This document shows positions 1-33,830 of a DNA stretch of 64,000 nt, in pieces. Below the pieces are notes generated by a model that was not told the origin of the DNA, ran no database searches, and saw only the letters and a list, made by a program, of their open reading frames with translations. The position numbers were made by a program, and so were the translations under genes. Each line of letters opens with the position of its first letter. The first letter of the stretch is position 1. Where the stretch lies: the IMG/VR virus record IMGVR_UViG_3300042393_000497, positions 3,783 through 67,782 of that record. One strand, written 5' to 3'. Source of the DNA: a virus (Duplodnaviria > Caudoviricetes).

Positions 1-73
1 CCGATTCTAATTTCATTTTTTTACGGTTTAAAATTCAATGCAAAGATAACATATTTTTAATTATTTTTGTTGT

Positions 74-289
74 ATGAAAGATACATACATCAAAGCAAGA
101 AATAGTAAATCCTATGAAGGATTATACGAATACTTCCTGGAAGAAGGAGGATCTAATATTGGTATTCAACAGTTTATAGGTTTATTTTCTTTTCAGAATC
201 TTAATGAGATACTACACAACTTAGATAAGAAACACAATCTAACTATTCTAGAGGATTCAAAGGGAGAGTTTGTTAAAGTAGTCGTTTAG
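74..289 (+). CDS. small hypothetical protein
   Basis: 71-aa ORF preceded by TATTTTTG (62-69), a Bacteroidota -7 element; 3' end overlaps the convergent ORF 257-1132. Confidence 0.5.
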   Translation: MKDTYIKARNSKSYEGLYEYFLEEGGSNIGIQQFIGLFSFQNLNEILHNLDKKHNLTILEDSKGEFVKVVV

Positions 290-1132
290 TTCATTCCATC
301 TTTTATTAACTGTATTCCTAGATATACCGCTGTACTTACTTACGTTAATTCTATTTACGCTTAGTCCAGTTTTTTTTAGATTATTAATTGCCTCTTTCAT
401 GCAATTCATCTTCTCGTCTTTTAAACTATTGTTCTTGTTTACAATAAACATATACTCATCCAAAGTAAACTCTTCCATGTATTCTTCATAGTATCTTTTA
501 ACTGTGTTATAAGACATACCAGTCAATTGACTCAAATCAGAAATACTACAAGTTTTCTTTTCTTCTTTTATGCTTGTAATTGAATCCAATATTATTCTTT
601 TTGTTTTATCCATCTTTAAACTATTTAAACATTTAATACTTTCTCTTATCTTCTTGTTCTTAATTATATTATTTGCTTCTTTTAAAAAAAAATCCTTATT
701 TAGCTTATATAAATAATTCTCTTCTTCTTCAGTAAATTTAATCAAATCACTTAGATTGTTTTTCCACTCAATCTGTTTCTTAGTTTTTATCTTATTAAAT
801 AACTCACTATTAAATTCATTGTGAAATATATCACTACATATTTTGTACACATCAGACTCTAACAAATAAGTACCATGAGTCTTCATCGCGTTTTCTATTA
901 ACCTAATTCCATCAGCAACCAAATCATCTTCACTACAATCAGTATTTAAATACCATATCTTCCAAACATATATTTTGTAGTTGTATAATGCAGAATCTCT
1001 ATAAGAACTTATATTCACATATCTAGCATCAACACAGTCGTACTTGTCCTGCCAAACATATAAGTACCTAAACTCTGTTCGCTTTATTTCTTTATCTAAA
1101 ATCTTAAACTTTATCATAAAACAAATATACAA
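257..1132 (-). CDS. DNA-binding protein with two C-terminal helix-turn-helix motifs (possible regulator or Rep-like protein)
   Basis: HTH-like segments SISDLSQLTGMSYNTVKRYY and NRINVSKYSGISRNTVNKRW. Confidence 0.6.
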   Translation of the reverse strand: MYICFMIKFKILDKEIKRTEFRYLYVWQDKYDCVDARYVNISSYRDSALYNYKIYVWKIWYLNTDCSEDDLVADGIRLIENAMKTHGTYLLESDVYKICSDIFHNEFNSELFNKIKTKKQIEWKNNLSDLIKFTEEEENYLYKLNKDFFLKEANNIIKNKKIRESIKCLNSLKMDKTKRIILDSITSIKEEKKTCSISDLSQLTGMSYNTVKRYYEEYMEEFTLDEYMFIVNKNNSLKDEKMNCMKEAINNLKKTGLSVNRINVSKYSGISRNTVNKRWNELNDYFNKLSL

Positions 1133-1289
1133 AATATAATGTAATACTTTGCATTAAGTGTATACATATATGAAAATGACAACACCCTTTCAGTCACTTG
1201 TATTATAATCTAACCGAATGATAAGGTGTATACATTTTATGAGATTGCTATGGTATAATAGTGAGACCGCTATGGTAGTTAGGTTATTT

Positions 1290-1815
1290 TCCCGCGTGGC
1301 CGATCCAAATCAAAACCAAAAACGCTTTTTTTTGATCTACCCCCATGCAATTTCGGATCCTTTTTTTCCAACTTTTTAGCTTTTTTATACCTACTTTTAT
1401 TTTGTAGGTTTTTTTGTGGTTATCCGTTTACCCTACATTTATTGTATTTCCTTGTTTGCCGTTTACCCTTGCCCCTATTTTTTTTGTGGGATGATGATAT
1501 ACTTTTTTTGTGGTAGCTAGTCACGTTTGAGAAACTATATATTAATTTTCACTTTGTTATTTTTTGCCGTTTATCGTTTTAATCAAAAATACATTTATTC
1601 GGTTTTTCGTTTGTTATTTTATAGCTATTCACAACGCAAAAAAATATGTTTTTTTTAGTAATTCAAGTCAAAAAATATCATTTCCAGAAATAGCAGCCAT
1701 TTTATTTTGTAGGAAAAACGCTACGCTTTTACCCTACATTTTTATATCTTTTTGTAAGAATTTAGCTTCAATGTATGTAGTTTATCGATTTTTTTGTGCA
1801 TTTTATCGATTTTAT
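1290..1815. repeat. non-coding region with T-tracts and short repeated motifs; putative genome terminus, packaging site or origin
   Basis: TTTTTTTGTGG x3 (1409, 1479, 1503), CCGTTTACCCT x2 (1424, 1459), TTTATTTTGTAGG..TTTACCCTACATTT x2 (1396-1440, 1700-1741); lies at the strand switch. Confidence 0.5.
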
Positions 1816-1839
1816 TAGTTTTCGGTTTTATTTCGGTTG

Positions 1840-1847
1840 TATGTTTG
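1840..1847 (+). promoter_or_regulatory. candidate early promoter (Bacteroidota -7 box)
   Basis: TATGTTTG matches TAnnTTTG, about 48 nt before ATG 1895; no clear -33 TTTG. Confidence 0.45.
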
Positions 1848-1894
1848 TCGAGCAATTAAGCACAAAACAAAATTTTAATTTAAACTTTATTATT

Positions 1895-2317
1895 ATGAAA
1901 ACACAAGCACAAACAACAGCAAAAAAAGTAGTAAACAAAACAGCTACTAAAAACGAAATCGTTAAGGCCTTAAACACTAAGGTTAAACAACCTCAAAAAT
2001 CTATCTTTGAGCGTCAAGCCGAATTAGTAAGTAAGGCCGAAAAAAGCACCTTTGACTTTGTTAAATTGGCAAATGTAACGGATAAAATTGAGGATAAAAG
2101 TATCTCGAAAGTTTACGCCAAAGTTATAGCAAATGCATATGCCTCGCAAATTGTAGGCAGCGACAAAATGCCTACTTTCAAGGCCTTTGTTGAAAAAATG
2201 CCTAGCAAAACGCTTTACTCAAATTGGGACGGCTACAAATGCCTAGCAAAATTCAATACCAAAAATGAATTGGCGAAAAAAGTAACTCGCCAAAATGCGG
2301 CAACGGCCAAAAAATAA
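1895..2317 (+). CDS. first early gene, Lys/Ala-rich hypothetical protein
   Basis: ORF 1796-2317; likely start is ATG 1895 (context ttattattATG, MKTQAQTTAKK). Confidence 0.75.
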   Translation: MKTQAQTTAKKVVNKTATKNEIVKALNTKVKQPQKSIFERQAELVSKAEKSTFDFVKLANVTDKIEDKSISKVYAKVIANAYASQIVGSDKMPTFKAFVEKMPSKTLYSNWDGYKCLAKFNTKNELAKKVTRQNAATAKK

Positions 2318-2980
2318 GGCTTTGCTAGGGCTGTCGTATATGATACGTTTATAGGGAGCGAAAACCTACAGCCCACTAATTAGGTAAACAAAACACCAAA
2401 AACCGCTTCGCGAAATGCGAACACCAAAGGCGAAACGCCTATAGCGGTTATAACGTGAAAAATTTGTGGACATGCTGAGAGTACAACGAAAATTTGGTAG
2501 AGTTGCGGAAAAAACCAACACACCTACGAATATATTGTATACTAACTAGATTAGCACTCTATTTATTCAGTTATGATAGAAAAACGTATTGCAAGTGTCT
2601 GACAAACATTTGTATCAAGGGAAATTATAGGTATTTCCGAACGTGGTTTTTTGTACGTTTTTTGTCCATAGGGTTACACGTGTAAAGTATAAGGACTACA
2701 CAAAAGAGGTAACACACAAGGGTACTAAGAATAAATTTATAGGTTACTAAGGATAAATTTATTTAGTAGTAGGCGACCTTTGTAGTAAAAAATGCCAATT
2801 GTTGAACGGGGCAGAAAAGGTATGTTTTTTAGTAAACACAAAATAAAACCAACATAGGTAGAAAATAAATCTGCCTATTCGTAAACATAAAATTTCCATA
2901 GAAAAAAACAAGGGTTTTGCACAGCGTACAAGGTATGTTGTGTGAGTTTCGATTTTAGTACTCTCTATGGAGCGAGTTAA
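2318..2980 (+). ncRNA. putative large structured non-coding RNA or leader
   Basis: No credible ORF; many nested stems: 2328-34/2368-74, 2401-07/2443-49, 2465-72/2663-70, 2855-62/2870-77, 2895-2902/2964-71, 2919-29/2933-43. Confidence 0.55.
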
Positions 2981-3015
2981 AAAAAAGCAATTACAAATTT
3001 TAAAATCAAAACAAG

Positions 3016-3216
3016 ATGAAAACATTCGGCAAAATTTATTTCTTATTTAATGCATTCGCATTTATTTATTTAGGGTTCACATTGGAAGACATGAGTGGAT
3101 CACAATTATTTTTCTTAGGGTTCTTAGTATCAATCTGCCTATTCGGTGCGTACATTATTTACTCAAATGAAAAGTGGGAAAAGGAAATAGATGAACAAAT
3201 CAAAAACAAATTATAA
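3016..3216 (+). CDS. small membrane protein (2 hydrophobic segments)
   Basis: 66 aa with two hydrophobic stretches; A-rich start context. Confidence 0.6.
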   Translation: MKTFGKIYFLFNAFAFIYLGFTLEDMSGSQLFFLGFLVSICLFGAYIIYSNEKWEKEIDEQIKNKL

Positions 3217-3429
3217 ACTTAAAAACAAAAAAGATGAAAAAAATACTATCAAAAAACTTCGCATACAACTTTTGTTATGTAATGGCTTTATATTTTTTAT
3301 TCCAAATAATCTTTAGATACTAATCATGAAGAAGCATAACAAAAAAGAAATGTTAATCACTCTCAACAAAGCAAAATTAGCTTGCTTATATATATCAATG
3401 ATTTCATTAATCTTATTAATTATAGGTCA

Positions 3430-3588
3430 ATGCATAAGCAAGTAGAGGAGTTGGAACAAAAAATTCGTGAGATATTCCGCAAAGAAAGATTGCTAAAAGA
3501 AGACGTAAAAAAAGCTAATCGATATTTAGAAGATTGGAAAACACTAACCAGGTATAAAGAAGATACAAGAAATCCTATTAAATCATGA
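3430..3588 (+). CDS. early hypothetical coiled-coil protein
   Basis: ATG 3430 within track ORF 3382-3588; coupled to the next ORF. Confidence 0.55.
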   Translation: MHKQVEELEQKIREIFRKERLLKEDVKKANRYLEDWKTLTRYKEDTRNPIKS

Positions 3589-3788
3589 GAAAAAGAATTA
3601 TCAAAACAGAAAGAGTAGATGTGAATGCAGTTATTAACGACATAGAGCATCGTATAGACACGAAAAAGCAATTAGTAAAGATTACTATGAAGCAAGAAAA
3701 TTGCGGCTTTGGAGAGGCAAAAAGTAAAATTCAGGATTCAGTAAAATGGAACTGCATTAAAAAAGAAGTTAAACTATTAAATAATTAA
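3585..3788 (+). CDS. early hypothetical protein
   Basis: ORF track; tightly packed in the operon. Confidence 0.65.
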   Translation: MRKRIIKTERVDVNAVINDIEHRIDTKKQLVKITMKQENCGFGEAKSKIQDSVKWNCIKKEVKLLNN

Positions 3789-3790
3789 TT

Positions 3791-4060
3791 ATGATATTCC
3801 AAAAAGTAATTAGCGAAGAACTGTGCAAAATGATTTCAAAAGAAACTAGGCTTGCATGGGAAGATGTATCGTATATAAACGATGATACGGATTCAATATC
3901 CAATGAAGAATTAGGAGTGACTATATTCCTTCCAAATATGACTGAGTATATGTACTTCTATGTAATAAACTCGGAAGATTACGGAAGCAATAGAAACGGA
4001 CTATTTTTTGAAAACTTAAACGATTTAGTAAACCATTTAAACGAACTAAAAGATGAATAG
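3791..4060 (+). CDS. early hypothetical acidic protein
   Basis: ORF track; aattATG start. Confidence 0.7.
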   Translation: MIFQKVISEELCKMISKETRLAWEDVSYINDDTDSISNEELGVTIFLPNMTEYMYFYVINSEDYGSNRNGLFFENLNDLVNHLNELKDE

Positions 4061-4187
4061 AGAACAACTAATTGAGGCTATCAGTAAAATGATTGAGAGA
4101 ACTCACAACGAAAAAGATAGAGAAGATTTGCTAATGTTCAGCGATGAAGAACTGAACACAATTTATAACGAACTAATAGAAAATTAA
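4053..4187 (+). CDS. 44-aa early hypothetical protein (not in track)
   Basis: MNREQLIEAISKMIER...; fills the gap between neighbouring ORFs. Confidence 0.6.
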   Translation: MNREQLIEAISKMIERTHNEKDREDLLMFSDEELNTIYNELIEN

Positions 4188-4189
4188 TT

Positions 4190-4378
4190 ATGAAATCAGA
4201 AACATTTTTACTTGTAGGATTATCAACTATCCTAACAATGGCTTTCTTCTTAGGAGGAAGAAACGAATCGTGTGCCAAAAGATTATTTGGTAGTACGGAA
4301 AAAGTAAACAAAGAATATAGATTTATTTCTTTGGAGATTGCAGAAACACAAACAGATTCATTAACAACAAACTATTAA
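4190..4378 (+). CDS. early protein with N-terminal hydrophobic segment
   Basis: ORF track. Confidence 0.55.
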   Translation: MKSETFLLVGLSTILTMAFFLGGRNESCAKRLFGSTEKVNKEYRFISLEIAETQTDSLTTNY

Positions 4379-4390
4379 AACATTAAAATC

Positions 4391-4702
4391 ATGAGCAAAC
4401 ATTTAACCAATGAGCAAATAGATAACAGACTTGGTGCTGTTATGAATGCATTCAGAGATGAAAACGCAAGAAGCGTAATGAGTATGAACTCTATAGCTAG
4501 TCTATTAAATCGTGGAACATATTCCATAAATGGAGATGATGAAACCAGTAAGAGAGTAGCTGAATCAATTAAGAGATTAACAACTTTTGTAAATAGAATA
4601 TCGGATATAGTACATAAAGGTACTGAAGAATGCGACCTTGATTCTCAGATTGATAAGAATCATGAATTTTGGAAACAATTGAGCGAAATATTAAACTCTT
4701 AA
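4391..4702 (+). CDS. early hypothetical protein
   Basis: ORF track; aaaatcATG start. Confidence 0.7.
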   Translation: MSKHLTNEQIDNRLGAVMNAFRDENARSVMSMNSIASLLNRGTYSINGDDETSKRVAESIKRLTTFVNRISDIVHKGTEECDLDSQIDKNHEFWKQLSEILNS

Positions 4703-5001
4703 CAACAAACTATTAGTATTATGTTAAACTTAGTAAAGCCTACCATAGAAGTAGGAAAAGAATTTATTGTAGTAAGTACAATAATCAATAACCAATTAGT
4801 AAAGCAAAGATACATTGGTTATAGTGCAAGTGAATGTTATCAAATGTTTAGAAAATATATCGCTAGTGGCGAGTACAAAAACAATTAATTATTATGAAGA
4901 AAGATTCACAACAATTAGCAGCCAACATAGCTAAGATAGGTTTGGTTATAGTATGGGGAGTATTTATGTTCACATTAGTAAAATCACATATATAAATTAT
5001 C

Positions 5002-5859
5002 ATGAAAAGAAAAACAAATTCAGTACAAAGGTTAGTATTCAAAATGCTAACCGAAAACACAGGGGTACACTTTTTAGATAGCGGATTTTCCAATGGTAGA
5101 ATGTGGCAAAGGAATCAAAAGAAAACTATTCAGGACTTTATGAAGGAAGATGAGGAGAAGTATGTATTCAATGATAAGTATGGAGAGTTAGAAAGAACTG
5201 TATCAGTATTCCACTACCTAAGCGGATTAGATTTAGATGATGTATGTACAAAATTTAATCTAAGAAATAACAAGGAGGATAATTGGGATGGTAATGTAGG
5301 AGCTTTAGAAGATTGCTATGGTGTAAGTGCGAGAGCAGGGCATTGGCTAATGGATAACCACGAAGTAGATGTGAAGTATACATTCAATACTTACAATGGA
5401 GATTCTGACTTATCACAAATCATACAAGGAAGCCAATTAGAAATCAATGGAGATGGTTACTTCTTGATACAAGTACACGGTGGAGCTGATGCGAGAGGTG
5501 GATATACTGACGCAAAATTATTTAAGCAAGACTATTGGTCAAGTTATATTCACGAATACTTACAAGAATATAGAGACAGCTACGAAATCAAACAAGACTT
5601 AGAAGAAAGATATATCGATGATGTAGAAGACGCATACGACAAAACAATTAAACACAAGGCAACATATATACTTGAACGATTAGATTGCGACAATGAACTT
5701 GATGCAGTAAAGAAGATGATTAGTAAATTAGACTTTATTGGTATGTTAGATGACATCAATCATACAATTAAAACACTTGGATTGGAATTAGATGAAGACT
5801 TAATGAAACAAATCAATGAGTTTAGTTTCGATGTTGACCAGTTAAAATTAGAAATGTAA
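5002..5859 (+). CDS. conserved phage early protein of unknown function
   Basis: Motif-like blocks HFLDSG..GRMWQRNQ, NTYNGDSDLSQ, QVHGGADARGGYT. Confidence 0.8.
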   Translation: MKRKTNSVQRLVFKMLTENTGVHFLDSGFSNGRMWQRNQKKTIQDFMKEDEEKYVFNDKYGELERTVSVFHYLSGLDLDDVCTKFNLRNNKEDNWDGNVGALEDCYGVSARAGHWLMDNHEVDVKYTFNTYNGDSDLSQIIQGSQLEINGDGYFLIQVHGGADARGGYTDAKLFKQDYWSSYIHEYLQEYRDSYEIKQDLEERYIDDVEDAYDKTIKHKATYILERLDCDNELDAVKKMISKLDFIGMLDDINHTIKTLGLELDEDLMKQINEFSFDVDQLKLEM

Positions 5860-5888
5860 ATCACTATCAACTATCAAAAATTATTATT

Positions 5889-6506
5889 ATGAGAACAAAA
5901 ATTATCGAGCAAGAAATCTATTCATTAGATGATGTAAAAAACAATGATGAACTTCTTAAAAAAGTTCTTGAAAAACATCACGAAATCAATGTGTATTATG
6001 ATTGGTGGGATTGTGTTTATTATGACCAAAAAGAAAAGATAGAAGAAGCAGGCTTTAGTATAAACAACATATACTTTAGTGGGTTTTGGAGTCAAGGAGA
6101 TGGTGCTATGTTTGAATACGATAGGATTGATGATAAGTTACTGAATGAATTTGTAGGCACATTAGACTTATCTCCAATGCGAAAACAATGGATAATTAAT
6201 AACATATATATTTCTAGCAAAGGACATCATAGAGGGCATTATCATCACGAAAAATGTTGTTCGCATAGTATCTATTGGGAAGTAGGTAATGGAGATTTGC
6301 ATTGGAGTACATACTTCTATCAATGGCTTGAATCGTTTGCAGATGATTTTGAAGAATTTATAGTAGATAAGTATGAAGATTTATGTAACGATTTATATCG
6401 TGCATTAGAAAAAGAATATGATTATCTAACAAGTGAAGAATCTATATTAGAATCATTAGAGTCAAACGGATACGAATTTGATATTAACGGAACTATAACA
6501 CTTTAA
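5889..6506 (+). CDS. acidic early protein (YFSGFWSQGDGA family), possible anti-defence
   Basis: Motif IYFSGFWSQGDGAMF; acidic C-terminus; function inferred. Confidence 0.7.
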   Translation: MRTKIIEQEIYSLDDVKNNDELLKKVLEKHHEINVYYDWWDCVYYDQKEKIEEAGFSINNIYFSGFWSQGDGAMFEYDRIDDKLLNEFVGTLDLSPMRKQWIINNIYISSKGHHRGHYHHEKCCSHSIYWEVGNGDLHWSTYFYQWLESFADDFEEFIVDKYEDLCNDLYRALEKEYDYLTSEESILESLESNGYEFDINGTITL

Positions 6507-6516
6507 ATTTAAAACT

Positions 6517-7032
6517 ATGATTACAAGAGTAGACAAGATTGAGGAATTTTTAGGTAACCTGGATACGACTATAGATATATTATCTATGGTCAATGCAGAA
6601 GATATAAATTCATACGATGATTTATATGATGCATTAGATAACAATAATGGATTTGATGTAGAAATCATATACTATGCAAGCGCAATGGACTATCTAAGAA
6701 TGCACGATAGTAGTTTGAGATGTAGTATAGAGATTGCAGAAGAATACGGATATACTTTGTCAAGTATCAATAGCGAATTGCTTGCCTCACTATTAGCATC
6801 AAGTGTGTGCAGGGATGAATTTATGGAACTGAAAAGCGAGATAGATGATTTCTTTGATGAGTTAGAAGATGATGAAGAAGAAGTGAATGAATTTGAAGAT
6901 TGGGTTACATATATGCAAGATCACTACGACTATATTAAAACAGAAAAGTTTTTAGAGTATGAAGAATACTATGAGAACCTATTAACATTTGAAGAAAACG
7001 GAGCAAATTTTTTAATGACATTAAACGATTAA
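6517..7032 (+). CDS. highly acidic protein, possible Ocr-like DNA mimic
   Basis: 46 D/E versus 8 K/R in 171 aa; IIYYASAMDYL segment. Confidence 0.55.
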   Translation: MITRVDKIEEFLGNLDTTIDILSMVNAEDINSYDDLYDALDNNNGFDVEIIYYASAMDYLRMHDSSLRCSIEIAEEYGYTLSSINSELLASLLASSVCRDEFMELKSEIDDFFDELEDDEEEVNEFEDWVTYMQDHYDYIKTEKFLEYEEYYENLLTFEENGANFLMTLND

Positions 7033-7037
7033 TTATT

Positions 7038-7193
7038 ATGAAAGAAGAACAACTTCACGAATTAGCATTACTATTTATGAACCAGTTCGCTTACAAAGAA
7101 TGTAGCTTAGATGAATTTCTAGAGCTATATAATGAGGAGCTTACTGATGATGAAAGAAACTTAGGATATTTTATACTTAGATTGTTTAATTAA
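7038..7193 (+). CDS. 51-aa acidic early protein (not in track)
   Basis: MKEEQLHELALLF...; aattattATG start. Confidence 0.6.
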   Translation: MKEEQLHELALLFMNQFAYKECSLDEFLELYNEELTDDERNLGYFILRLFN

Positions 7194-7207
7194 TAAATTT
7201 TAAAACT

Positions 7208-7456
7208 ATGGAAACATTAACACCACAAGAACGCAAAGAACAATACATTCAAACTTTGCAAAAACAAATTGAAGACAGATTTAATGATGGTAGATTAACT
7301 ACATCATTTGAAACGTGCTATCGTGCGCCAGTGTACGGATGGAGTGTAGAAGAATATATGTATATGCCAACAGTTGCGAATAGACTGAGAGAGAAAGGAT
7401 ATACGGTTTCATCGAGTGTGAATTGGGAAGTTACTGATTGGCTTATTGCAGTATAA
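7208..7456 (+). CDS. early hypothetical protein
   Basis: ORF track; aaaactATG start. Confidence 0.75.
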   Translation: METLTPQERKEQYIQTLQKQIEDRFNDGRLTTSFETCYRAPVYGWSVEEYMYMPTVANRLREKGYTVSSSVNWEVTDWLIAV

Positions 7457-7481
7457 ATATTAACATTTAAAAACAATTATT

Positions 7482-7985
7482 ATGGGATTCTTTAGTTGGA
7501 AAACACAAGATACTAATAGAAGTATCACAAACAAATGGTCAAACTATTCAACATTTAAAGTTGATATGATAGATGACAAAGGAAATGTATGGACTGAAAA
7601 CCACTATGATGGATATGGTGTATTCGGTGGCAAGGATTATTATGAATTACTTGCAGAAATGAATGGAGTTACCTCTGACTTAGAAGGGGAACAATATACT
7701 GACTTCATGCGAATAGAAGGCATTGACATTGCATTTAAAGATAATGGTAGTGGAGTAGGCACTAAGGGAGTTAAGTATCCTAATCTATTTGAAGACTCAA
7801 ACATTCTTGATTATCAAGAAGAAGGTCCAGATACTTGTGAGTATCAAGGTTTCTTTTATGAAGACGAAGAAGACAATGATGAAGATGGAGAATGGCTTAG
7901 TGATTGTTGCGGAGCATCTGAATGGCAAGATGAAACTGGGATATGCGACAACTGTAAAGAACACGCAGACTTTAATATAGATTAA
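7482..7985 (+). CDS. early protein with acidic linker and C-terminal CC..CxxC zinc-finger-like tail
   Basis: MGFFSWKT N-terminus; SDCCGA..GICDNCKEH. Confidence 0.75.
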   Translation: MGFFSWKTQDTNRSITNKWSNYSTFKVDMIDDKGNVWTENHYDGYGVFGGKDYYELLAEMNGVTSDLEGEQYTDFMRIEGIDIAFKDNGSGVGTKGVKYPNLFEDSNILDYQEEGPDTCEYQGFFYEDEEDNDEDGEWLSDCCGASEWQDETGICDNCKEHADFNID

Positions 7986-7992
7986 TAAAACT

Positions 7993-8193
7993 ATGGATAT
8001 AACAATAGACTTATTAGAAGTGGCATCCGAATTAGCACACGAAATTGTGTGTGCAAAATTTGAAGACGATGCTAGTGCAATATATGATAATGCAACTGAC
8101 ACTATTACGGTTTACTCCGAAGAAGCACAAGATTTATTTAACGAATGGTACGATTACTATTATAACTTTTTATTAAACTTAAAAACAAATTAA
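7993..8193 (+). CDS. small acidic early protein
   Basis: ORF track. Confidence 0.7.
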   Translation: MDITIDLLEVASELAHEIVCAKFEDDASAIYDNATDTITVYSEEAQDLFNEWYDYYYNFLLNLKTN

Positions 8194-8197
8194 AATT

Positions 8198-8515
8198 ATG
8201 GAAAATTCAATTGGACAATTAGACAAGTTAATCGAGCAAAAAGTAGACAACAAAATCAAAGAGTTCTCTAAAAGTTTAACAGATCAAATAACTAAATTTC
8301 TAAAAGATAACGGAGATTATCATGGAGAATATCTATATGTTATAAAAGATTGGAACAAAAATAATAATGGAAATTATATTCCATTAACACACTCACACCA
8401 AAGTATATATCAAGTACAAATAGGATTGGTTCACGGATTATCTCTTACTATAAAAGATAAGATGATTACAAAAGAATCAAAAGAGTTATTAGACAAAGTA
8501 AAACTATTAGGATAA
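8198..8515 (+). CDS. early hypothetical protein
   Basis: ORF track. Confidence 0.7.
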   Translation: MENSIGQLDKLIEQKVDNKIKEFSKSLTDQITKFLKDNGDYHGEYLYVIKDWNKNNNGNYIPLTHSHQSIYQVQIGLVHGLSLTIKDKMITKESKELLDKVKLLG

Positions 8516-8520
8516 AAATT

Positions 8521-8727
8521 ATGAAAGCAGCAACAAAAACAAAGTTTGTAAAATTAACATCTTACATCAGTAAAGAACCAATATACATAAACATAGATAT
8601 GATTGGTCATATTTACGAAGAAAATAACTATACAGTTATAGGACATTTGACTCATAGAAACGGAGGATTTAATGTAACTCAAGATTTAGAAGAAGTTTTA
8701 GAATTAATTAATCAATTAAACAAATAG
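8521..8727 (+). CDS. small protein, possible FlbD/LytTR-like beta fold
   Basis: FVKLT..EPIYINIDMIGHI pattern. Confidence 0.5.
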   Translation: MKAATKTKFVKLTSYISKEPIYINIDMIGHIYEENNYTVIGHLTHRNGGFNVTQDLEEVLELINQLNK

Positions 8728-8732
8728 AAATT

Positions 8733-8750
8733 ATGGGAAGATATTAATAA
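8733..8750 (+). pseudogene. orphan 5' stub (MGRY-stop) of gene 9265-9624
   Basis: ATG GGA AGA TAT TAA encodes the same first four residues as ATG GGG CGC TAT TAT at 9265. Confidence 0.7.
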
Positions 8751-8766
8751 ATACCATATTGTTTTG

Positions 8767-8774
8767 TATCTTTG
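8767..8774 (+). promoter_or_regulatory. -7 promoter box carried by the HNH cassette
   Basis: TATCTTTG 18 nt before ATG 8792. Confidence 0.6.
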
Positions 8775-8791
8775 TAAAAAAATATAAAGTT

Positions 8792-9262
8792 ATGATAGAA
8801 ATAGAAAAAGATTATTTTGTTACTGAAGATGGCAAAGTATTTAGTAAAAGAAAGTTTAATAAACTTACTGAATTAAAGTTATCAAAAACAGGTCACAAAG
8901 GTTATGTTAAAGTTAGGATAAATAAAAAAGATTATTTTGTTCATAGACTTGTAGCTAAAGCATATTTAACAAACCTATTTGATAAAAAAGTTGTAAATCA
9001 TATAAACGGAATAAAACACGACAATCGTGTGCAAAATTTAGAATGGTGTACAAGAAGTGAAAATTCAAAACACGCATACGACATTGGTTTACATAAACCA
9101 CATACGGGATTAAAAGATAAAGGAAATAATAAATTCTACAAAGAGTGGAATAATTTAATTAAACAAGGAATATCAATGAGAAAAATTTCAAAACAATATG
9201 GCGTTAGTCATAGAACAATCGGGAACGTAGTAAAAAAGTTTAACAATCTAAAAATCAATTAG
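8792..9262 (+). mobile_element. free-standing HNH homing endonuclease
   Basis: FVHRLVAKAY, VNHINGIKHDNRVQNLEWCTRSEN (HNH_3 type), C-terminal HTH; likely start 8792. Confidence 0.9.
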
Positions 9263-26232: not shown

Positions 26233-26248
26233 CCTCCCCTTTTTTTTT
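26220..26248. terminator. terminator at convergence of the + and - arms
   Basis: GGGAGG/CCTCCC stem plus T9. Confidence 0.8.
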
Positions 26249-29200
26249 ATTTATTCTCTCTTATATATTTAACATACTCTATTGCAGTAGGCTCATCAAT
26301 TACATTTAATTCAACTAAAAGATTCATTGTTTTTGTATCTATATTATCTCTGTTGTTGGTTAAATCTCCAAATCTTTCATAAAGTGCAATTGCTCTAGCT
26401 CTTCCTGGAGAAGCCTTCTTAACATCTTTTAAGAAAGCAACTTTTTCTTCTATTACGTTTTTAAGAGTTTCTTCTATTCCTTTTTCTATAACTCCATATG
26501 TACTCATGTCTTTTTCATACAAATTATACATATAGTTTCTAAATTCTTTTTTCAATAAACTAGCTGCCTTGTAATCTTTATTAGTCATTAAATCTACAAG
26601 TGGCTCAATATAAGTTTCTTTTATTTCTTCTCTTGCAGATTCTATCTTCTCTTCCTCTTTAGCAACTTCTTTTTCATATCCATCAATACCCTTTTCTTTT
26701 AATATATTTACATATTTTTCAACATACTCTAATTGATGATTCATTTCAACATCTTTTCTAAACAATTCAGCCTCTTCATCACTAGGTATTTTATAATATT
26801 GATCTCTCTCTTCTTGAGTCATTGACTTATTGATAGGAATAGCTGAAGACTCTTGTATTTGCTTAATTCTGTCCTCGTATTTAAGCATACTTGTTTCATT
26901 TATTGTTCCTAATAAAATTGAAACTCTATCTCCAAATTTATAATTATCATTAAACATAGTAACTGCTCTCATCGTTAGCATAGCTAATTTATCTGTTGGA
27001 GCATTGGTAAATGTTTCTACACCAGCTAACACTTGTCTAAACATAGAATACTGGTCTTTTTCGTCAAACATTTTTTTAACAGTTCTTGTTGTAGCTCCAA
27101 GAGTAGGACTTAATTGATTTAATATTCTAAATATTCTATCGTTTGTTTTTTCATTTCTATTAATCTTAGATAATCCAACAGCAGAAGGAAAAGTCTCTCT
27201 AAATATTTCATTTTTAGCTATAGACATTGATTTTCCAATAAATCCAAATTGAGTTAAAAAGTCATCAGCTACCGCATTTATTTTTTCTGCTGGCTTACTA
27301 TTATCTCCTTGAGAAGACTTATCATCATCTCCTTTAGGAAGAAGAGCTTTTGAAAGGTTAAACATTACTGCTGCACCTATTCCAAAATAAGCTGCTTTTT
27401 TGTAATTCTCAACTTTATTTTCTTTACTCTTCAAAGCATCTCTAAGAAACTCTATTGAAGTAGATCCGTTTTGAATAGAAGGTCCTAAGAACGCAGATAA
27501 TCCAAGCGTTCTATATAAAGGATTAGATACATATCTTCCAACATATGCTTTTTTAGAAGATGCTTGAGTTTTTTCAGCTATATTAAACATCTTAATCATA
27601 GCTTCGTCTTCTGCTTTTGCTTTAGATTCAGACTCACTCATACCTTCAGATTTATATTTTCTCAATAGTTTTTCATATTCTAAACCAAAAACACCATGTC
27701 CTCCTATAGAAATTGCATAAGCATCTGCAACAGCTGTTAAAACTAATCCATCAGAAACTAATGAAGAAGTGTAGTCTGAACCTAAAACCCCTTTTCCTTC
27801 TGACATTAATTTTATTGTTTCTGAATCAATGTCATGGCCAGATTTGTTAATTCTATCATAAAATAAAGGATGATTTAATACCATGTTATAGTATTTTTCT
27901 GCTAACTTTCTATTTTCTTTTCCTTTTCTAAATGTTAATTCTCTATATCTTTTTACATCAGCAGCCTCCAAAGAAGCAGAAAAGCTAAACCCACCAGATA
28001 ATTGACCAACAGCAGATATTGGACTAAATACTAATTGAATACCATTTTTTATAGAAGTAAACTTAGCGGATCCTTTAAAAGAATTAATTGCTGCATTAAA
28101 TTCAGAACGACCTGTAATTATAGCTAATGATTTTTCTTCAGCTCTTTTAACCCATTCTTCTCCAAAGTTTTTAATTAAAACCTTTCTATTTACTTCTCCA
28201 TTAAATAAAGTATTCATATTGTCTAAAACCATATGACCTTCAGTAAATAAAGCAACATTTTTTGCGTACCCTTTATAGACATCTACAAATGGTTTGTATA
28301 TTAATCTACCTCCCTCTCTTTTAGAATATAAATTTCCAAACAATAAAGTCTCTTTAGAGTTATTATAATCTCTAAATTGCTTTAAAGTGTCTATTGCTCC
28401 TTCAGCCATTGGTTCTACAGCGGATGGAACGTAAGGAATTTCTTCTGGAATATTTTTTCCATAGAATTTTTCCAAGACTTCAGCATATGTTGTTTTATCT
28501 GAATCAAGATATTTTTCAGGCATAATAGTATCTTTTCCAGACGCATCTAATGCTTCATTAAGTTTTGGCAACATTTCAGCGTATAATCCTGGAAGACTAT
28601 CCGCTACTTGTTTTAATTTAGGATTATTATTTACATGGTCAATAACTTTTTTAACGTCTTCAATTGTATGGCCATCATTTATGAATTTTCTAATATTCAT
28701 TGGATTTCTCAATTCGTTATACAACTGTACAACATGAGCGTCAGACATTTTGTCTAATGTATTAATTCCATTTGAATCAGTTATAACTAAATCAGTTTCT
28801 GTTAAAAAAGTATTTTCATAAGTTCCTTTTTCTTTTTTATTTTTTTCAGTTCTTATCTTTTTTGCTATTTCAGATTCCCAAACCTGAGTTACAGAAGTAT
28901 ATTCTTTTTTAGTTCTTCCAAATGTAGTATCAATTACTTTATTTAAAGACCTTACAAATTTTCCGTAAGATAATTGACTTCTATTCTCAACAGACTCTAG
29001 TGGTTGAATAGCGTGTTTATTCAAGAAATCAGAAGAAGCCTCATCAAAAATTAAGTCTTGATAAACAGCTTTAACTCCAGATATATTTGAAATTTGTTTT
29101 TTAATAAACCTATAAGAAGATCCAAATAATGCTTTTTTTATCTCTCCATTTTTTAGATTTATGAAAAACGAATTTGAATTGTTGTATTGGCTCTGAGCTT

Positions 29201-32200
29201 TTTGTTCAGTACTTGGAACAACTATTAACTCTCCATCAAATTCTCCTGGCATATTTTCTTTTACATACTTCAAATCAGAAGGTAAGTATGTCTTACCATC
29301 TACAATTACAACATTTCCTTTTTCAAGTTCGCTTGCTAAGTTATATCTTCCTGTTTCTATATCTCCAGTTTTTCTTGAAACAATTACTGGAATCTCCTCA
29401 TTAATATTTCTCTTAACTAAATCTTGCTGTTGCTTTATAGACTTTCTTCCTGCCTTACCATTATTAATTATATCGTTTATCTGATTATTAATATCGGTTA
29501 ATTGCTGAATATCTAAAGTTTCAAAATTAACTCCTTTGTATCCATCAAGAAACTTAATTAAGTTTTCTTTGGCTTCAGCAGTTATCTTGCTGTTTTTAAT
29601 TTTAGCTTCAGATTTATATAGAATAGATTTCGGATCAATTGCTTCCTTAATCTTTGCTATTAGATTCTTTTTGGTTGATGCCGATATATCTTTAGAAGCA
29701 GAATCAACTATATCATTAATTCTTTGTACTTGTTTAAGAAAATTATTTGGATTTAATTGTCTTATAGCAGTAGTTATTTGAGAATTATATTTATTAGGAA
29801 AATTTTTAGGCATAACAGATCTAGCATAATCAATTAAATCATTCTTAGCTTGATTAAATGCTTTATTCGCTTCTGCACTACCTGCTCTAAATCCTTTTGC
29901 TTTAGCATCAACTACAGCTTGTTTCATTTTCTCTACACCATCTTTTATCTTTTGTTTTAGTGCAGTTACTTCTTCGCTATTTTTAGCAGCTTGTTTCTCT
30001 AATGCTTCTTTCTTCTCAATCTTTCCTACTTCTCTTTCAGCAGCTATTACATCTTTAGCCTGGCCTTTTAAGTCAGAGATTTCTTCTTTTGCATCTGATA
30101 GTTTTTGCTCTTTATTGATATTCTCTAAAGCATATTTCTTAAACTCATTTTCTCTTACAGCATATCCTTTTTCTTTTAAGAATTTATATCCTTCAGCAAT
30201 TGCTTCAGCTAATGATTTTCCTCCTTTATAAGCAGCTCTAACTATTTTTAATCCGCTGTTAGCAGCCATTAATGGTATACCCAAAGTAGCATCGTAAGCC
30301 TTTCCTTTTGTGCTTGTTGCTTCAATAGCTCTATCTAATGCATTTAGTATTTTATCGTTTTGCTCTTTTCTATATTGATTAGCTAAATCTTCAGCATCAC
30401 TAAGTCTTTTAGCATCTTTAGATTCTTTTATAGATTTAAACTCATCAATAGCTTCGGTTCTAGCTTTCTCATCCTTAACTCCTACATATTTACCTTCAGG
30501 ATTCTTTTGAGACACAGAGAACTCTCCATTTGGCTTCTGAGTAACAACAAACTCTTTTTCCCGTAATGGGAACACTAATCTATTTTGTTTTTCAGATTCT
30601 TTCGCAGCAGTTTCTAGCAAATCTTTTTCAACTTGAGCTGTTTCCGCATCAAGTTCTTTTTGCATTTGCTCAATCTCCTCTAAAGACTTAGCCTCAAATT
30701 CTTGTTTTTCTTTTACTCTGTCTAGTCTTTGTTCTCTCTTAACTTCTTTTGCAGTCTTAACTGGTTCAGCAGTTTCTTTTCCTTCAACTGTTAATGGTAA
30801 TGTAGTTTCTTTAGCAGGTTTTTGAAGTTCAATGTCTTTCAATATTCTTTCTGCTTTTGCTCCTCTAAATGACCTTTGTAGTCCTGTTTCATTTTCTTTA
30901 AGAACAATTACAGACTCTCCCTTTTTAGGTCTTCTTTGTCTAACAAAAGTATACTCTTTTCCATCTACAGTTAGAATGCCTGGTTTCTCTCCTAAAGTAA
31001 CAGGCTCAGTTCTCATTCCTTCTGGTGGGAATGTAGACATATCGTAGGAAGCTATAGATTCATTTCCTACTTCGTGTATATTTCCTAATTCATTTATATA
31101 TCCATCAGAGGTTCTAAACACATATTGCTGACCTTCAATCTCCAACATCCCTTCCTTTCCATTGCTGTATATCTTCTCTCCTAAGTTGTCAGCTAATGTA
31201 CCCTCTTCTTCTGCTCTGTTTACCTCTTCTTTTAATGCTTCTATTTCATCAGCAGGAATCTCAATTATCTCTTCTTGTGGTTTAGCAACAGGTTTAACTT
31301 CCTCTGTTTTAGGTTTTCCTGCCTCAGACTCAGCTTGAGTTTTAGCTTCTTTTGCCGCATTAATTGCAGCTACTTCTTCATTGTGTATTTTTATAGCTCT
31401 TCTTGATATTTCACTATCATCAAACTTAAACTCAGTCTGACCTTTTTCTTTGGCTTCTTGAGTAAGTTGTCTCATAGCTCTATCCTTTAAGTCTTGTACT
31501 CTCTTAGGATTGTTTAATTGCTCTAAAGTAACACTAGGGCCTTGCTTAATAATATTTTGTCTTCTTTGCTCTATCTCTTTAAACTCTTTCGCTAAATCAT
31601 CTAACAGTTCTTGTTTAGATTCTTTAGTACCAGTATCGTCTAATTTAATTTCCTCTGCTTTCTTTCTTAGCTTTGCTTGTCTTTTAGTTATTGCACTAAT
31701 TTCACTTAGTTGATTATTAGATATTGATTTAATATTCTCTACTTGTTTTTTAACTAACTTGTCAAAATTTTCTTTTTCTTTAATATAAGCCTCTTTAGTT
31801 TCTTGCTTCATTAAATCGCTCAATGAAGGATCTCTTAACTGAGATTCTAATTTAACTAATTTATCAGATGATTTTTGTATTCTAGTTTCTGTACTAAATG
31901 GCTTAACAAAAGAAGCAGCAAAAGTATGCGAAACTACTGGAAGAATAAGACCTAACGAAGTAGCTGTTGCCCAAGAGTCTACTAATCCATCAGTTATTTG
32001 AACATCTTCTTTTCCTGCTCCATATTTCTCAAGAATGTTTTTACTAATAGTAATACCTGTAAACCAAGCATTAGATTTTACAGTTCCAAACACAAGGTCT
32101 TTTCCTAAAGGCTTCCAAAAACCTTCTGCCATTATTTGTCTTTCTGCTGTAGTTCCAGAGTTAATAACTCTAGAAGCTCCCTTAAATAAATTAGATTCTA

Positions 32201-33830
32201 ACAATGCTTGTCCAGAGTCAATTAATCCATGTCCTAATGGAACTGTAGCCATTTGAAAATCACTATAATTAGCAACTCCTTCTTCCATTTCTCTTTGCAT
32301 ATTAGCATATGCATTACCTGTAGATGATATGCCAATAGCAGCAATACCTCCAGGCCCAGTCATTGCAGCACCAAGTATAGGAGCTTGAGTAGCTAACATA
32401 CTATTTCTAAGCCAATCTCCAAAAGATTCAAGACTATTAATTGATTTTAATTCAGTTGGCTTTGCAACTCCTTGTCTTGCTTCTTCTGCTTCTGCTCTTA
32501 AATCTCCTGCAACTGCATCAGTAAATGAAGAAATCATTTTATCAGAATCAACAGTTTTTAAAGGGTCTTCTATTCCAATAGCATCAAACAAATTTGACTT
32601 CATGTTTAATCCATAAGAAATACCACTAAAAAGACCAGCGTCTATTTCTTTAATTGATGCTTTAAGATTTTGATAGAAATTATTTGCCCAGTTATAATCT
32701 CTTCCAAATATATCTAAGTTTTCAGATGCAGTTCCAAGTTTTTCTTGAGTGTTCAAAAACTTATCGTAGCCTGTAGTTGCTTCTACTAGCATTTGATTAT
32801 ATTCCTTTGTTTTTTGCTGTATATCAATACTCATTTCTTGAGACAAAGGGATTTTGTTTTTAGTCAAATCATTAGCCTTGACTATTAATTCATTTAAGTT
32901 AGCAAGTTTTACTTCTAAAGCAGGTCTTAGAATATTCTGTTTTTCTAATTCAATCTTGTTTTCTTCTTGTAGAGAATTATATTCAACTGCTTGAAATCTT
33001 TGTAGTTTATCTTTTTCAGATAACCCCATATTATCAACATTCGTTTGAGCTGTCTTTAAAAAACTTTTTTGTTTGTTTTCTTTCAATAAATCAAGCTCTT
33101 CTTTTATTCTTATTTGTTTTGCTCTTTCATTAATAGATTCATTTGTTATTGGAGTAGGTATCTTTTTTTGTGCCTTAGCTTCTTCTTGTTCTATTAACAA
33201 TTCTTTTTTTGCTTCTTTTTTTTCTTTAGAGAATGGATCTGTAGCAGCAACAGATGCATTCATTCCAGTAGGTTTAGCAGCATATCCTTTTCCTGGAATA
33301 ACTGATGGAAGAGTAAAAAATCTTTCTTTAAATAAAGCCTCAGCTACATTTGCAAATCTTTTTACATTATTCCAAACACCTTCGGAGTTCCATTCATCTT
33401 CTACTGTTTGTGTTTTTTTTTGTTTTTCTTCTTCAGAAATGTTTCCAGCAGCAATAAAGTTATCTGCTCTAGTACTCATCTCTTGATAGTACGGAGATGT
33501 TTTTAGCTTAGACAAATTCCAAGCCATAGTTCCTTCTGCATATTTTGGTTCTTCTACAGCAGGCTTAGTTGTTTTTGGTGGTTTAGTTGTACCATTTGAA
33601 GTACCCGAAACCTGTGCTTTTTGAGGTTCTGCGTAAGCCGATAAAGATTGTGAAAGAGTTGGAGGTGTACTTGAATCCCATGGTGCTCTTAGTGAAGATG
33701 ATGAAGCAGATTCTTTTTTTTTTTTAGTTTCCTCATTCTCAGTAATACCTAGTATTTCAGATGGACTTGGCAATTTATTAGATTCTCCTAATATATCGTT
33801 TGGACTTGGAAGTTTTCTTGGTTGTAGCAT
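26247..33830 (-). CDS. giant internal virion/DNA-ejection protein (2527 aa)
   Basis: Last gene of the virion operon after two ejection-like ORFs; coiled-coil rich with Gly/Ala hydrophobic segments; no catalytic motif recognised. Confidence 0.6.
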   Translation of the reverse strand: MLQPRKLPSPNDILGESNKLPSPSEILGITENEETKKKKESASSSSLRAPWDSSTPPTLSQSLSAYAEPQKAQVSGTSNGTTKPPKTTKPAVEEPKYAEGTMAWNLSKLKTSPYYQEMSTRADNFIAAGNISEEEKQKKTQTVEDEWNSEGVWNNVKRFANVAEALFKERFFTLPSVIPGKGYAAKPTGMNASVAATDPFSKEKKEAKKELLIEQEEAKAQKKIPTPITNESINERAKQIRIKEELDLLKENKQKSFLKTAQTNVDNMGLSEKDKLQRFQAVEYNSLQEENKIELEKQNILRPALEVKLANLNELIVKANDLTKNKIPLSQEMSIDIQQKTKEYNQMLVEATTGYDKFLNTQEKLGTASENLDIFGRDYNWANNFYQNLKASIKEIDAGLFSGISYGLNMKSNLFDAIGIEDPLKTVDSDKMISSFTDAVAGDLRAEAEEARQGVAKPTELKSINSLESFGDWLRNSMLATQAPILGAAMTGPGGIAAIGISSTGNAYANMQREMEEGVANYSDFQMATVPLGHGLIDSGQALLESNLFKGASRVINSGTTAERQIMAEGFWKPLGKDLVFGTVKSNAWFTGITISKNILEKYGAGKEDVQITDGLVDSWATATSLGLILPVVSHTFAASFVKPFSTETRIQKSSDKLVKLESQLRDPSLSDLMKQETKEAYIKEKENFDKLVKKQVENIKSISNNQLSEISAITKRQAKLRKKAEEIKLDDTGTKESKQELLDDLAKEFKEIEQRRQNIIKQGPSVTLEQLNNPKRVQDLKDRAMRQLTQEAKEKGQTEFKFDDSEISRRAIKIHNEEVAAINAAKEAKTQAESEAGKPKTEEVKPVAKPQEEIIEIPADEIEALKEEVNRAEEEGTLADNLGEKIYSNGKEGMLEIEGQQYVFRTSDGYINELGNIHEVGNESIASYDMSTFPPEGMRTEPVTLGEKPGILTVDGKEYTFVRQRRPKKGESVIVLKENETGLQRSFRGAKAERILKDIELQKPAKETTLPLTVEGKETAEPVKTAKEVKREQRLDRVKEKQEFEAKSLEEIEQMQKELDAETAQVEKDLLETAAKESEKQNRLVFPLREKEFVVTQKPNGEFSVSQKNPEGKYVGVKDEKARTEAIDEFKSIKESKDAKRLSDAEDLANQYRKEQNDKILNALDRAIEATSTKGKAYDATLGIPLMAANSGLKIVRAAYKGGKSLAEAIAEGYKFLKEKGYAVRENEFKKYALENINKEQKLSDAKEEISDLKGQAKDVIAAEREVGKIEKKEALEKQAAKNSEEVTALKQKIKDGVEKMKQAVVDAKAKGFRAGSAEANKAFNQAKNDLIDYARSVMPKNFPNKYNSQITTAIRQLNPNNFLKQVQRINDIVDSASKDISASTKKNLIAKIKEAIDPKSILYKSEAKIKNSKITAEAKENLIKFLDGYKGVNFETLDIQQLTDINNQINDIINNGKAGRKSIKQQQDLVKRNINEEIPVIVSRKTGDIETGRYNLASELEKGNVVIVDGKTYLPSDLKYVKENMPGEFDGELIVVPSTEQKAQSQYNNSNSFFINLKNGEIKKALFGSSYRFIKKQISNISGVKAVYQDLIFDEASSDFLNKHAIQPLESVENRSQLSYGKFVRSLNKVIDTTFGRTKKEYTSVTQVWESEIAKKIRTEKNKKEKGTYENTFLTETDLVITDSNGINTLDKMSDAHVVQLYNELRNPMNIRKFINDGHTIEDVKKVIDHVNNNPKLKQVADSLPGLYAEMLPKLNEALDASGKDTIMPEKYLDSDKTTYAEVLEKFYGKNIPEEIPYVPSAVEPMAEGAIDTLKQFRDYNNSKETLLFGNLYSKREGGRLIYKPFVDVYKGYAKNVALFTEGHMVLDNMNTLFNGEVNRKVLIKNFGEEWVKRAEEKSLAIITGRSEFNAAINSFKGSAKFTSIKNGIQLVFSPISAVGQLSGGFSFSASLEAADVKRYRELTFRKGKENRKLAEKYYNMVLNHPLFYDRINKSGHDIDSETIKLMSEGKGVLGSDYTSSLVSDGLVLTAVADAYAISIGGHGVFGLEYEKLLRKYKSEGMSESESKAKAEDEAMIKMFNIAEKTQASSKKAYVGRYVSNPLYRTLGLSAFLGPSIQNGSTSIEFLRDALKSKENKVENYKKAAYFGIGAAVMFNLSKALLPKGDDDKSSQGDNSKPAEKINAVADDFLTQFGFIGKSMSIAKNEIFRETFPSAVGLSKINRNEKTNDRIFRILNQLSPTLGATTRTVKKMFDEKDQYSMFRQVLAGVETFTNAPTDKLAMLTMRAVTMFNDNYKFGDRVSILLGTINETSMLKYEDRIKQIQESSAIPINKSMTQEERDQYYKIPSDEEAELFRKDVEMNHQLEYVEKYVNILKEKGIDGYEKEVAKEEEKIESAREEIKETYIEPLVDLMTNKDYKAASLLKKEFRNYMYNLYEKDMSTYGVIEKGIEETLKNVIEEKVAFLKDVKKASPGRARAIALYERFGDLTNNRDNIDTKTMNLLVELNVIDEPTAIEYVKYIRENK

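Follow-up and report, generated by a model that had tools for sequence, protein, structure and literature searches.

The sequence studied here, which we call the window, is a stretch of 64,000 nucleotides that makes up most of a 67.8-kb virus genome with direct terminal repeats, belonging to an uncultured phage. The window shows crAss-like traits, namely the C-terminal domain of a muzzle protein and a P22-like portal; its other genes include those for ERF, a 5'-3' exonuclease, a DnaA-like HTH protein, a cytosine methylase and a GroEL-type chaperonin. We are interested in positions 2318-3015, a gap of 698 nt between a 140-aa gene (1895-2317) and the next gene (start at 3016). A preliminary description of the window had remarked that about 700 nt without a credible ORF follow the first early gene, and this is confirmed. 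No ORF longer than 88 aa is present in 2318-3015 under code 11, under a code that reads TAG as glutamine, or under code 4, so that the search for recoded ORFs in this gap ended without a candidate. The same site is free of ORFs over 550-715 nt in all 16 distinct relatives that carry a homologue of the 140-aa protein (p140), wherever the contig reaches far enough. The GC content is 0.34-0.43 over 1900-2500, an interval that takes in the 140-aa gene and the 5' modules of the gap, as compared with 0.25-0.30 around it. The features of the locus, in window coordinates, are the following.

1895..2317, plus strand: the gene for p140, a basic 140-aa protein, which joins the RNA locus in most lineages.
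2328..2379, plus strand: TLS-A, an anticodon-less tRNA look-alike that folds alone as a three-way junction. It consists of a 6-bp acceptor-like stem (2328-2333 / 2369-2374), a 5-bp hairpin (2335-2347), a linker UUUA, a T-arm-like hairpin (2352-2368) with GCGAA in its loop, and an unpaired A (2375) followed by CUAA.
2401-2449, plus strand: a three-way junction with twin hairpins, closed by an outer stem (2401-2407 / 2443-2449).
2408-2420, plus strand: hairpin 1, inside the 2401-2449 junction.
2428-2440, plus strand: hairpin 2, inside the same junction.
2453-2473, plus strand: a conserved motif after the twin hairpins, composed of ACGUG, an A-run and UGGACAU.
2474..2854, plus strand: a variable core, with mosaic similarity among lineages.
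2855-2877, plus strand: an 8-bp hairpin 5' of TLS-B, read from the sequence, with no U-run.
2895..2972, plus strand: TLS-B, a cloverleaf-shaped tRNA look-alike (a four-way junction in the RNAfold prediction for the isolated piece). It consists of an 8-bp acceptor (2895-2902 / 2964-2971), a D-like arm (2905-2918) with GG in its loop, an 11-bp arm (2919-2943) that ends in a triloop and has no anticodon loop, and a T-like arm (2944-2963) with UUCGAUU at 2948-2954 in an enlarged loop.

According to the preliminary description, most of this region folds into nested stems. The plus strand of the whole region does fold better than dinucleotide shuffles of itself, with z = -2.9 in one run and z = -3.25 in a second, in which 0 of 100 shuffles folded as well; the minus strand gives z = -2.1. 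The excess is local, however. It is found in TLS-A (z = -2.3), in the twin-hairpin junction (z = -3.2) and in TLS-B (z = -4.8, with 0 of 300 shuffles as good), whereas the middle of the region, 2450-2740, folds at chance level (z = +0.1). Since the excess is confined to these three modules, the region is only partly ‘densely folded’. The individual elements that had been described, namely the three-way junctions at 2328-2374 and 2401-2449, the four-way junction at 2895-2971 and the hairpin at 2855-2877, are all present, but the first and the last of the junctions are better described as tRNA look-alikes. To judge from the aligned sequences, the structures of the three-way and four-way junctions are maintained by compensatory changes.

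The relatives on which the comparisons rest were found through p140, whose homologues fall into 16 distinct lineages (47-67% identity) in IMG/VR and JGI metagenome contigs. Among these and the more distant groups introduced below, the locus recurs in about twenty related phage lineages, and covariation across the syntenic relatives is strong both for the twin hairpins and for the class of tRNA look-alikes.

The twin hairpins are present in all 16 of the p140 lineages. In the window each has a 5-bp stem, an innermost pair that is G-U or G-C, and an AAA triloop; across lineages the stems have 4-6 bp, the loops three bases, and the pair lies 94-176 nt past the stop codon. An alignment of the 16 lineages gives pairing of 98.8% and 90% for the two helices, and both sides have changed in 6 of their 10 pairs. 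The resulting covariation score is reached by 0 of 500 shuffles, and sliding the partner strand reduces the pairing to 27-46%. All 16 lineages have a G-U at the innermost position of hairpin 1, and further G-U pairs occur. Because a G-U pair would be an A-C mismatch on the opposite strand, the structure belongs to the plus strand, that is, to the sense strand of the flanking genes. The earlier argument from the G-U pairs is supported in so far as they favour the plus strand, and RNA is the most economical reading of a structure on that strand.

The loops of the two hairpins are matched within a phage: either both are AAA, or both are CAA (as in L012, L017 and L024). Since both loops change together, a single partner reading both of them is suggested. 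The core motif of the twin hairpins occurs at one site in the first 6 kb, and the model R2 finds a single copy in 64 kb; likewise, no further copies of the tRNA look-alikes or of the twin hairpins turn up elsewhere in the 64-kb window when R1 is run with filters off. Directly after the hairpins, the motif at 2453-2473 (columns 66-80 of alignment A3) is nearly invariant across 16 lineages, its variants elsewhere reading UUGACAU or UUGAAAU, and it is also found in the distant lineage of L043, L070 and L084.

The two tRNA look-alikes stand at either end of the gap. TLS-A starts 11 nt past the stop codon of the 140-aa gene, and 44 nt separate the end of TLS-B from the start codon that follows it in the window (3-44 nt in the window and its relatives). 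In the relatives, the acceptor of TLS-B has 7 bp; next come a D-like hairpin of 4 bp, whose loop is UGGA, the sequence UUUA, and a T-arm of 5 bp closing a 7-nt loop, and the third arm is absent from most of them. Two kinds of T-loop occur among them, UUCGAUU or UUCAAUC in some lineages, AGCGAAA or AGCGAUA in other lineages. Past the acceptor, most copies of TLS-A as well as of TLS-B have a C-(U/A)-A trailer, and the elements have no 3' CCA. The window's own TLS-B deviates from this pattern in its enlarged T-loop and in its trailer, GCGAG. It is also not a tRNA by its anatomy, given that the arm at 2919-2943 ends in a triloop in place of a 7-nt anticodon loop. ARAGORN calls no tRNA gene in the window or at this site in 19 related loci.

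TLS-A and TLS-B are mutually alignable, and they are alike when each is folded alone. Their kinship is also seen with a covariance model for which nine TLS-B copies from relatives were the sole input, and which finds TLS-A of the window with 22.7 bits (E about 0.002-0.005) and recovers TLS-A at eight loci, namely the window and seven others. For the class as a whole, 94.5% of the cells are paired and 15 of 16 pairs have changed on both sides, as in 0 of 500 shuffles, in an alignment (A12) that was fitted to the model and whose counts are somewhat inflated; the T-arm is 98.8% paired in this same alignment, fitted as it is to the model's structure. Some relatives (L027 at 1030-1060, L025 and L029) have a third hairpin immediately 5' of TLS-B, and its loop is of the CGAAAUC type. 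It is possible that the 3' strand of this hairpin pairs with the conserved AAGGUGGA motif that follows, in which case the two would form a two-state element.

The variable core is a mosaic: by pairwise BLAST, different pieces of the ORF-free stretch are common to different lineages. For example, 2528-2725 matches L027 at 84% identity, whereas the best piece for L006 is 2641-2818, at 70%. The window's core (2450-2740) is up to 84% like that of L027, and yet the p140 proteins of the two phages are 52% identical. Some pairs in the core show compensatory changes with respect to L027. It was here that the preliminary description had placed a long nested domain. The pairings of that domain exist in the window (2465-2472/2663-2670, 2481/2651, 2505/2634, which had been placed at 2506, and 2522/2628), and the outer helix, 2465-2472/2663-2670, is unchanged in L027. 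The inner pairings 2505/2634 and 2522/2628, however, are impossible in L027, which is the closest relative, and a compensatory change in L027 backs a local hairpin at 2620-2639 of the window instead. The idea of a new large non-coding RNA must be qualified in the same way: the locus is conserved, structured and non-coding on the plus strand, and it has no Rfam family, but there is no single ornate fold of 660 nt, as its middle is a mosaic among lineages.

A long-range helix between 2458-2468 and 2992-3002 (11 bp, matched in 2 of 500 shuffles) is confined to the window. Since it has no counterpart in seven relatives, we reject it as a conserved feature. The core also contains a 22-nt tandem direct repeat at 2719-2762, whose copies are 91% identical, and L027 has a gap there. 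In the group of L009, the region (560 nt) is 88-92% identical, as compared with 80-85% for the upstream gene and 52-66% for the downstream genes, and RNAalifold identifies 21 pairs that are kept through double changes.

The upstream protein p140 has a pI of about 10, and its AF2 model (pLDDT 80) is all helical. It belongs to no Pfam or PHROG family and has no match in cultured phages; Foldseek returns nothing at E <=0.001 and no informative fold match in the PDB. The best VIA-align matches, EF-hand-like helical bundles with a Z of 4.7, are uninformative. We also scanned for the twin-hairpin pattern. The matches were mostly due to chance or to coding repeats, and the relatives among them are L052, L065, L097/L111, L043/L070/L084 and perhaps L092/L098/L099, of which four are more distant groups: L065, L097/L111, L043/L070/L084 and perhaps L092/L098/L099. 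In L097/L111 the upstream protein is 34-36% identical to p140, the order of modules is the same as in the window, the twin hairpins lie within a three-way junction, and both mimics have textbook T-arms. In L043/L070/L084 the twin hairpins and the motif that follows them come after a 138-aa gene, and the region ends in a strong terminator. Since distant lineages share this layout, the architecture extends past the protein family that was used to find it. On the other hand, a profile comparison detects no relation between the 138-aa protein of the L043 lineage and p140, and the occurrence of twin hairpins without a detectable p140 homologue weakens the case for p140 as a universal partner. Twin hairpins of the same type are also seen in L092/L098/L099 (~150-620), at the first bases of the locus sequence, with no ORF of at least 45 aa upstream of them in the available sequence. 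Additional copies of the hairpin, each standing alone, are seen farther 5' in these sequences, and a weak TLS-like match is at 155-210.

Searches of databases place the locus outside the known families. A cmscan of 1100-3300 against Rfam, with E up to 10, gives only chance-level matches to unrelated families, and at gathering scores there is nothing in the whole window and nothing in ten related loci. By their covariance models, GOLLD, ROOL, HEARO, c4 and the group I/II introns do not include this region, among them the phage RNAs to which the preliminary description had likened it. Neither ARAGORN nor Rfam reports a tmRNA in the window, while the same tools do detect one in the phage phi14:2. 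Finally, blastn and tblastn against 50,697 phage records (cultured phages) yield no match. The stretch is, in sum, a conserved, modular structured RNA locus on the plus strand, outside Rfam.

The surroundings of the locus bear on how it might be expressed. A host-type promoter (TTG ... TAnnTTTG) is absent from the plus strand within 2318-3015, and a sigma-70-type promoter scan of the region is at chance level. As there is no host-type promoter inside the region, we assume that it is co-transcribed with the 140-aa gene. A second ORF-free stretch, of ~750 nt, lies 5' of the 140-aa gene at 1140-1894. It is rich in direct repeats, which include a 19-mer with CCGTTTACCCT in three copies, TTTTATTTTGTAGG and TTTACCCTACATTT in two copies each, and a tandem pair with TTTATCGATTTT, and it probably serves as a control or origin region, with the early operon on one side and a divergent HTH gene (257-1132, minus strand) on the other. 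No genes for tRNA processing or RNA repair are found among 30 phage ORFs scanned against Pfam. An ORF of 2527 aa (26247-33830, minus strand) lacks a DFDxD motif and matches nothing in Pfam, PHROG or, by sequence, the PDB. It is at most a candidate for a crAss-type virion RNA polymerase, and would then be a divergent one.

The conservation of the locus, its covariation, its strand and its tRNA-like anatomy are what the sequences show. From these we infer that the RNA of the locus is transcribed, cleaved, stable and bound by protein. The reading that we tentatively prefer, and to which we give a little less than an even chance, is that the tRNA mimics are cut sites, and that cutting frees an RNA of ~520 nt which carries the twin hairpins as a platform for protein. 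The RNA of the locus would probably be co-transcribed with the first early gene, and TLS-A and TLS-B would most likely act as punctuation at its two ends. RNase P recognises the stack of acceptor and T-arm together with the elbow, and the enzymes that process the 3' side cut after the discriminator base. Each mimic would be cut at its 5' side by the host's RNase P, and an enzyme that trims the 3' ends of tRNAs, such as RNase Z, would cut after the unpaired base that precedes the C-(U/A)-A trailer. Three products would result: an upstream mRNA, the ~520-nt RNA, and downstream mRNAs with short A-rich leaders. The near-identical triloop hairpins near the 5' end of the RNA, along with the motif that follows them, are most likely a platform for a dimeric or repeated protein partner, for which the first candidate would be the co-inherited, basic p140. 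In eight lineages an intrinsic terminator stands ahead of TLS-B, at about the place of the 2855-2877 hairpin of the window; termination, and not cleavage, may then form the 3' end of the RNA, with TLS-B perhaps being part of the transcript that follows.

The same elements would also fit a phage ribonucleoprotein, a reading that we consider unlikely: a stable RNA of ~500 nt, with mimics of the top half of tRNA at its ends and twin hairpins that bind a p140 dimer, would act in trans early in infection. If this were true, the particle could be a multimeric scaffold like ROOL and GOLLD, or it could divert host factors that bind the elbow or acceptor end of tRNA (defence nucleases, toxins), as a decoy, and it would represent a new class of phage RNA for counter-defence or takeover, in a clade of uncultured phages with crAss-like traits.

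Several other explanations must be weighed against cleavage at the mimics. The preliminary description had proposed, besides a new RNA, a leader for processive antitermination or for processing of the early operon. As a cis-acting read-through leader of the lambda nut or HK022 put type, the locus would use its twin hairpins, in the nascent RNA, to load a factor onto the polymerase or to act on it directly, so that terminators before the downstream early genes are ignored. Its two conserved small hairpins do come directly after the first early gene, much as nutR sits after cro in lambda; their loops change together, as would fit one cognate factor; and strong intrinsic terminators lie 300-450 nt past the hairpins in L006, L012, L025, L027, L043, L070, L084 and L065. 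These terminators are found in only 8 of about 21 lineages, however, and are lacking in the window and about 13 others. On the plus strand of the window there is no intrinsic terminator at 2450-3015, the sole call being the long arm within TLS-B. Nor is there a boxA-like element, and the hairpins have a triloop closed by G-U or G-C and not a GNRA-like pentaloop. Read-through also leaves unexplained the two tRNA mimics, as well as why all 560 nt are conserved in the L009 group. Since so few lineages have a terminator, and the window has none, we regard antitermination as a weaker rival and give it a low probability; of the two roles proposed for a leader, processing is the best-fitting mechanism. 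It is comparably improbable, in our view, that the RNA is a trans-acting decoy or sponge, whose mimics and hairpins would soak up or misdirect host factors that bind the elbow or acceptor end of tRNA (defence nucleases, nucleotidyltransferase toxins) or would shield the RNA ends from exonucleases. A decoy would fit the retention of the acceptor, the T-arm and the D-like GG loop without an anticodon, and it agrees with an early position and a probably high expression; the early non-coding RNAs of phi14:2, for instance, are abundant throughout infection (bioRxiv 10.1101/2020.03.07.982082). Against it, no defence or counter-defence gene is linked to the locus here, and the mimics lie exactly at gene borders, which is a better fit to punctuation.

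Alternatively, the element might operate at the level of DNA, with the triloop hairpins extruded in single-stranded DNA as promoters for a phage polymerase (as in N4), as an origin or as a packaging signal. The promoter hairpins of the N4 virion polymerase resemble 5-bp stems with 3-nt loops, and a TTGACA-like motif follows the twin hairpins; furthermore, the crAss-like polymerase gp66 transcribed denatured DNA in vitro (bioRxiv 10.1101/2020.03.07.982082). However, the G-T wobbles are invariant on the plus strand, and the strand that serves as template when transcription runs rightward would have A-C mismatches in their place; and the T-loop motifs and the tRNA-like covariation over 16 pairs make sense only for RNA. 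The 2527-aa ORF, moreover, lacks the DFDxD motif and any sequence match to solved polymerases, and the likely control region is elsewhere, in the repeat-rich stretch upstream (1140-1894). We therefore hold a DNA-level role to be very unlikely. What we most disfavour, and assign only a slight chance, is that decaying tRNA genes flank a spacer without present function. It is true that TLS-B of the window is a degenerate cloverleaf, that the middle varies and has a folding energy at chance level, and that tRNA islands are frequent in phages; but in more than 15 lineages compensatory changes have preserved the stems, the region of the L009 group is more conserved than its flanking genes, and the twin hairpins are not derived from tRNA.

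Returning to cleavage at the mimics, the closest known parallel is found in plant mitochondria, where tRNA-like t-elements have been proposed as signals for RNase P and RNase Z at the ends of mRNAs (Forner et al. 2007, PMC1920247). Like the t-elements, the mimics described here are tRNA-like without being functional tRNAs, and they stand at the 5' or 3' borders of mRNAs: an acceptor-like stem is stacked on a T-arm-like hairpin, with covariation, and the placement is at borders of transcript units. They differ in that they belong to a phage and not to an organelle, in that they form a three-way-junction class whose trailer is conserved, in that a long non-coding RNA lies between them, and in that their cleavage is a prediction. 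By analogy, then, the locus may work most like a pair of t-elements that flank a long phage non-coding RNA. New here are the twin-hairpin module, its association with a small basic protein, and the fact that the mimics bracket a long RNA. If the enzymes of the host's tRNA pathway do cut the mimics, then punctuation in the style of tRNA would be a general way of shaping early transcripts in phages with crAss-like traits, and it would account for the retention by such phages of tRNA look-alikes that have no anticodon.

The mimics also recall the tRNA-like domain of tmRNA and mascRNA, which likewise combine an acceptor, a T-arm and a GG-containing D analogue without an anticodon arm. The mascRNA marks the 3' end of a long non-coding RNA via RNase P. 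Unlike in tmRNA, each mimic closes locally, and a tag reading frame, a G3-U70 pair and a CCA are all absent. With lambda nut (boxB) and HK022 put, the locus shares small conserved hairpins after the first early gene and, in some lineages, terminators downstream; it differs from them in its two identical triloop hairpins within a three-way junction, in the lack of a boxA, and in mostly having no terminator. With ROOL and GOLLD it shares a size of several hundred nt, a phage origin and an association with tRNA, since ROOL and GOLLD occur near tRNA islands and tRNAs are sometimes found inside GOLLD. Unlike these, it has no Rfam match (E up to 10) and no conserved ornate core, and its mimics are anticodon-less. 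ROOL, GOLLD and the early long non-coding RNAs of phi14:2 are among the least understood parts of viral genomes. The family described here has clear limits and is backed by covariation, and its parts lend themselves to separate study: the mimics as predicted cleavage sites, the predicted platform for a protein partner, and a candidate gene for that partner.

The crAss-like Cellulophaga phage phi14:2 produces abundant early lncRNAs from long early intergenic regions (Drobysheva et al., bioRxiv 10.1101/2020.03.07.982082); they are transcribed rightward, are abundant from the first time point and persist (bioRxiv 10.1101/2020.03.07.982082). The window resembles phi14:2 in its long ORF-free stretch among the first early genes and in its crAss-like traits. 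Homology is not apparent, as R1 and R2 over positions 1-9000 of phi14:2 match only the T-arm of its tmRNA, and the two phages differ in that one of the phi14:2 regions contains a tmRNA-like gene whereas the window contains none. This tmRNA-like gene is a minor observation of its own. For phi14:2 4031-4502, no RNA gene is given in the RefSeq stretch examined, and no tmRNA is mentioned for the site in bioRxiv 10.1101/2020.03.07.982082. Both ARAGORN and Rfam identify a tmRNA-like gene at 4031-4502 on the plus strand of phi14:2 (L030, NC_021806), with the tag GSSVQKLAMVA*. Its score under the tmRNA model is 46 bits, as compared with a gathering score of 47, and the match is full-length with E 2.6e-16. 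The gene lies within the g005-g006 intergenic region, which is the source of an abundant early lncRNA (bioRxiv 10.1101/2020.03.07.982082).
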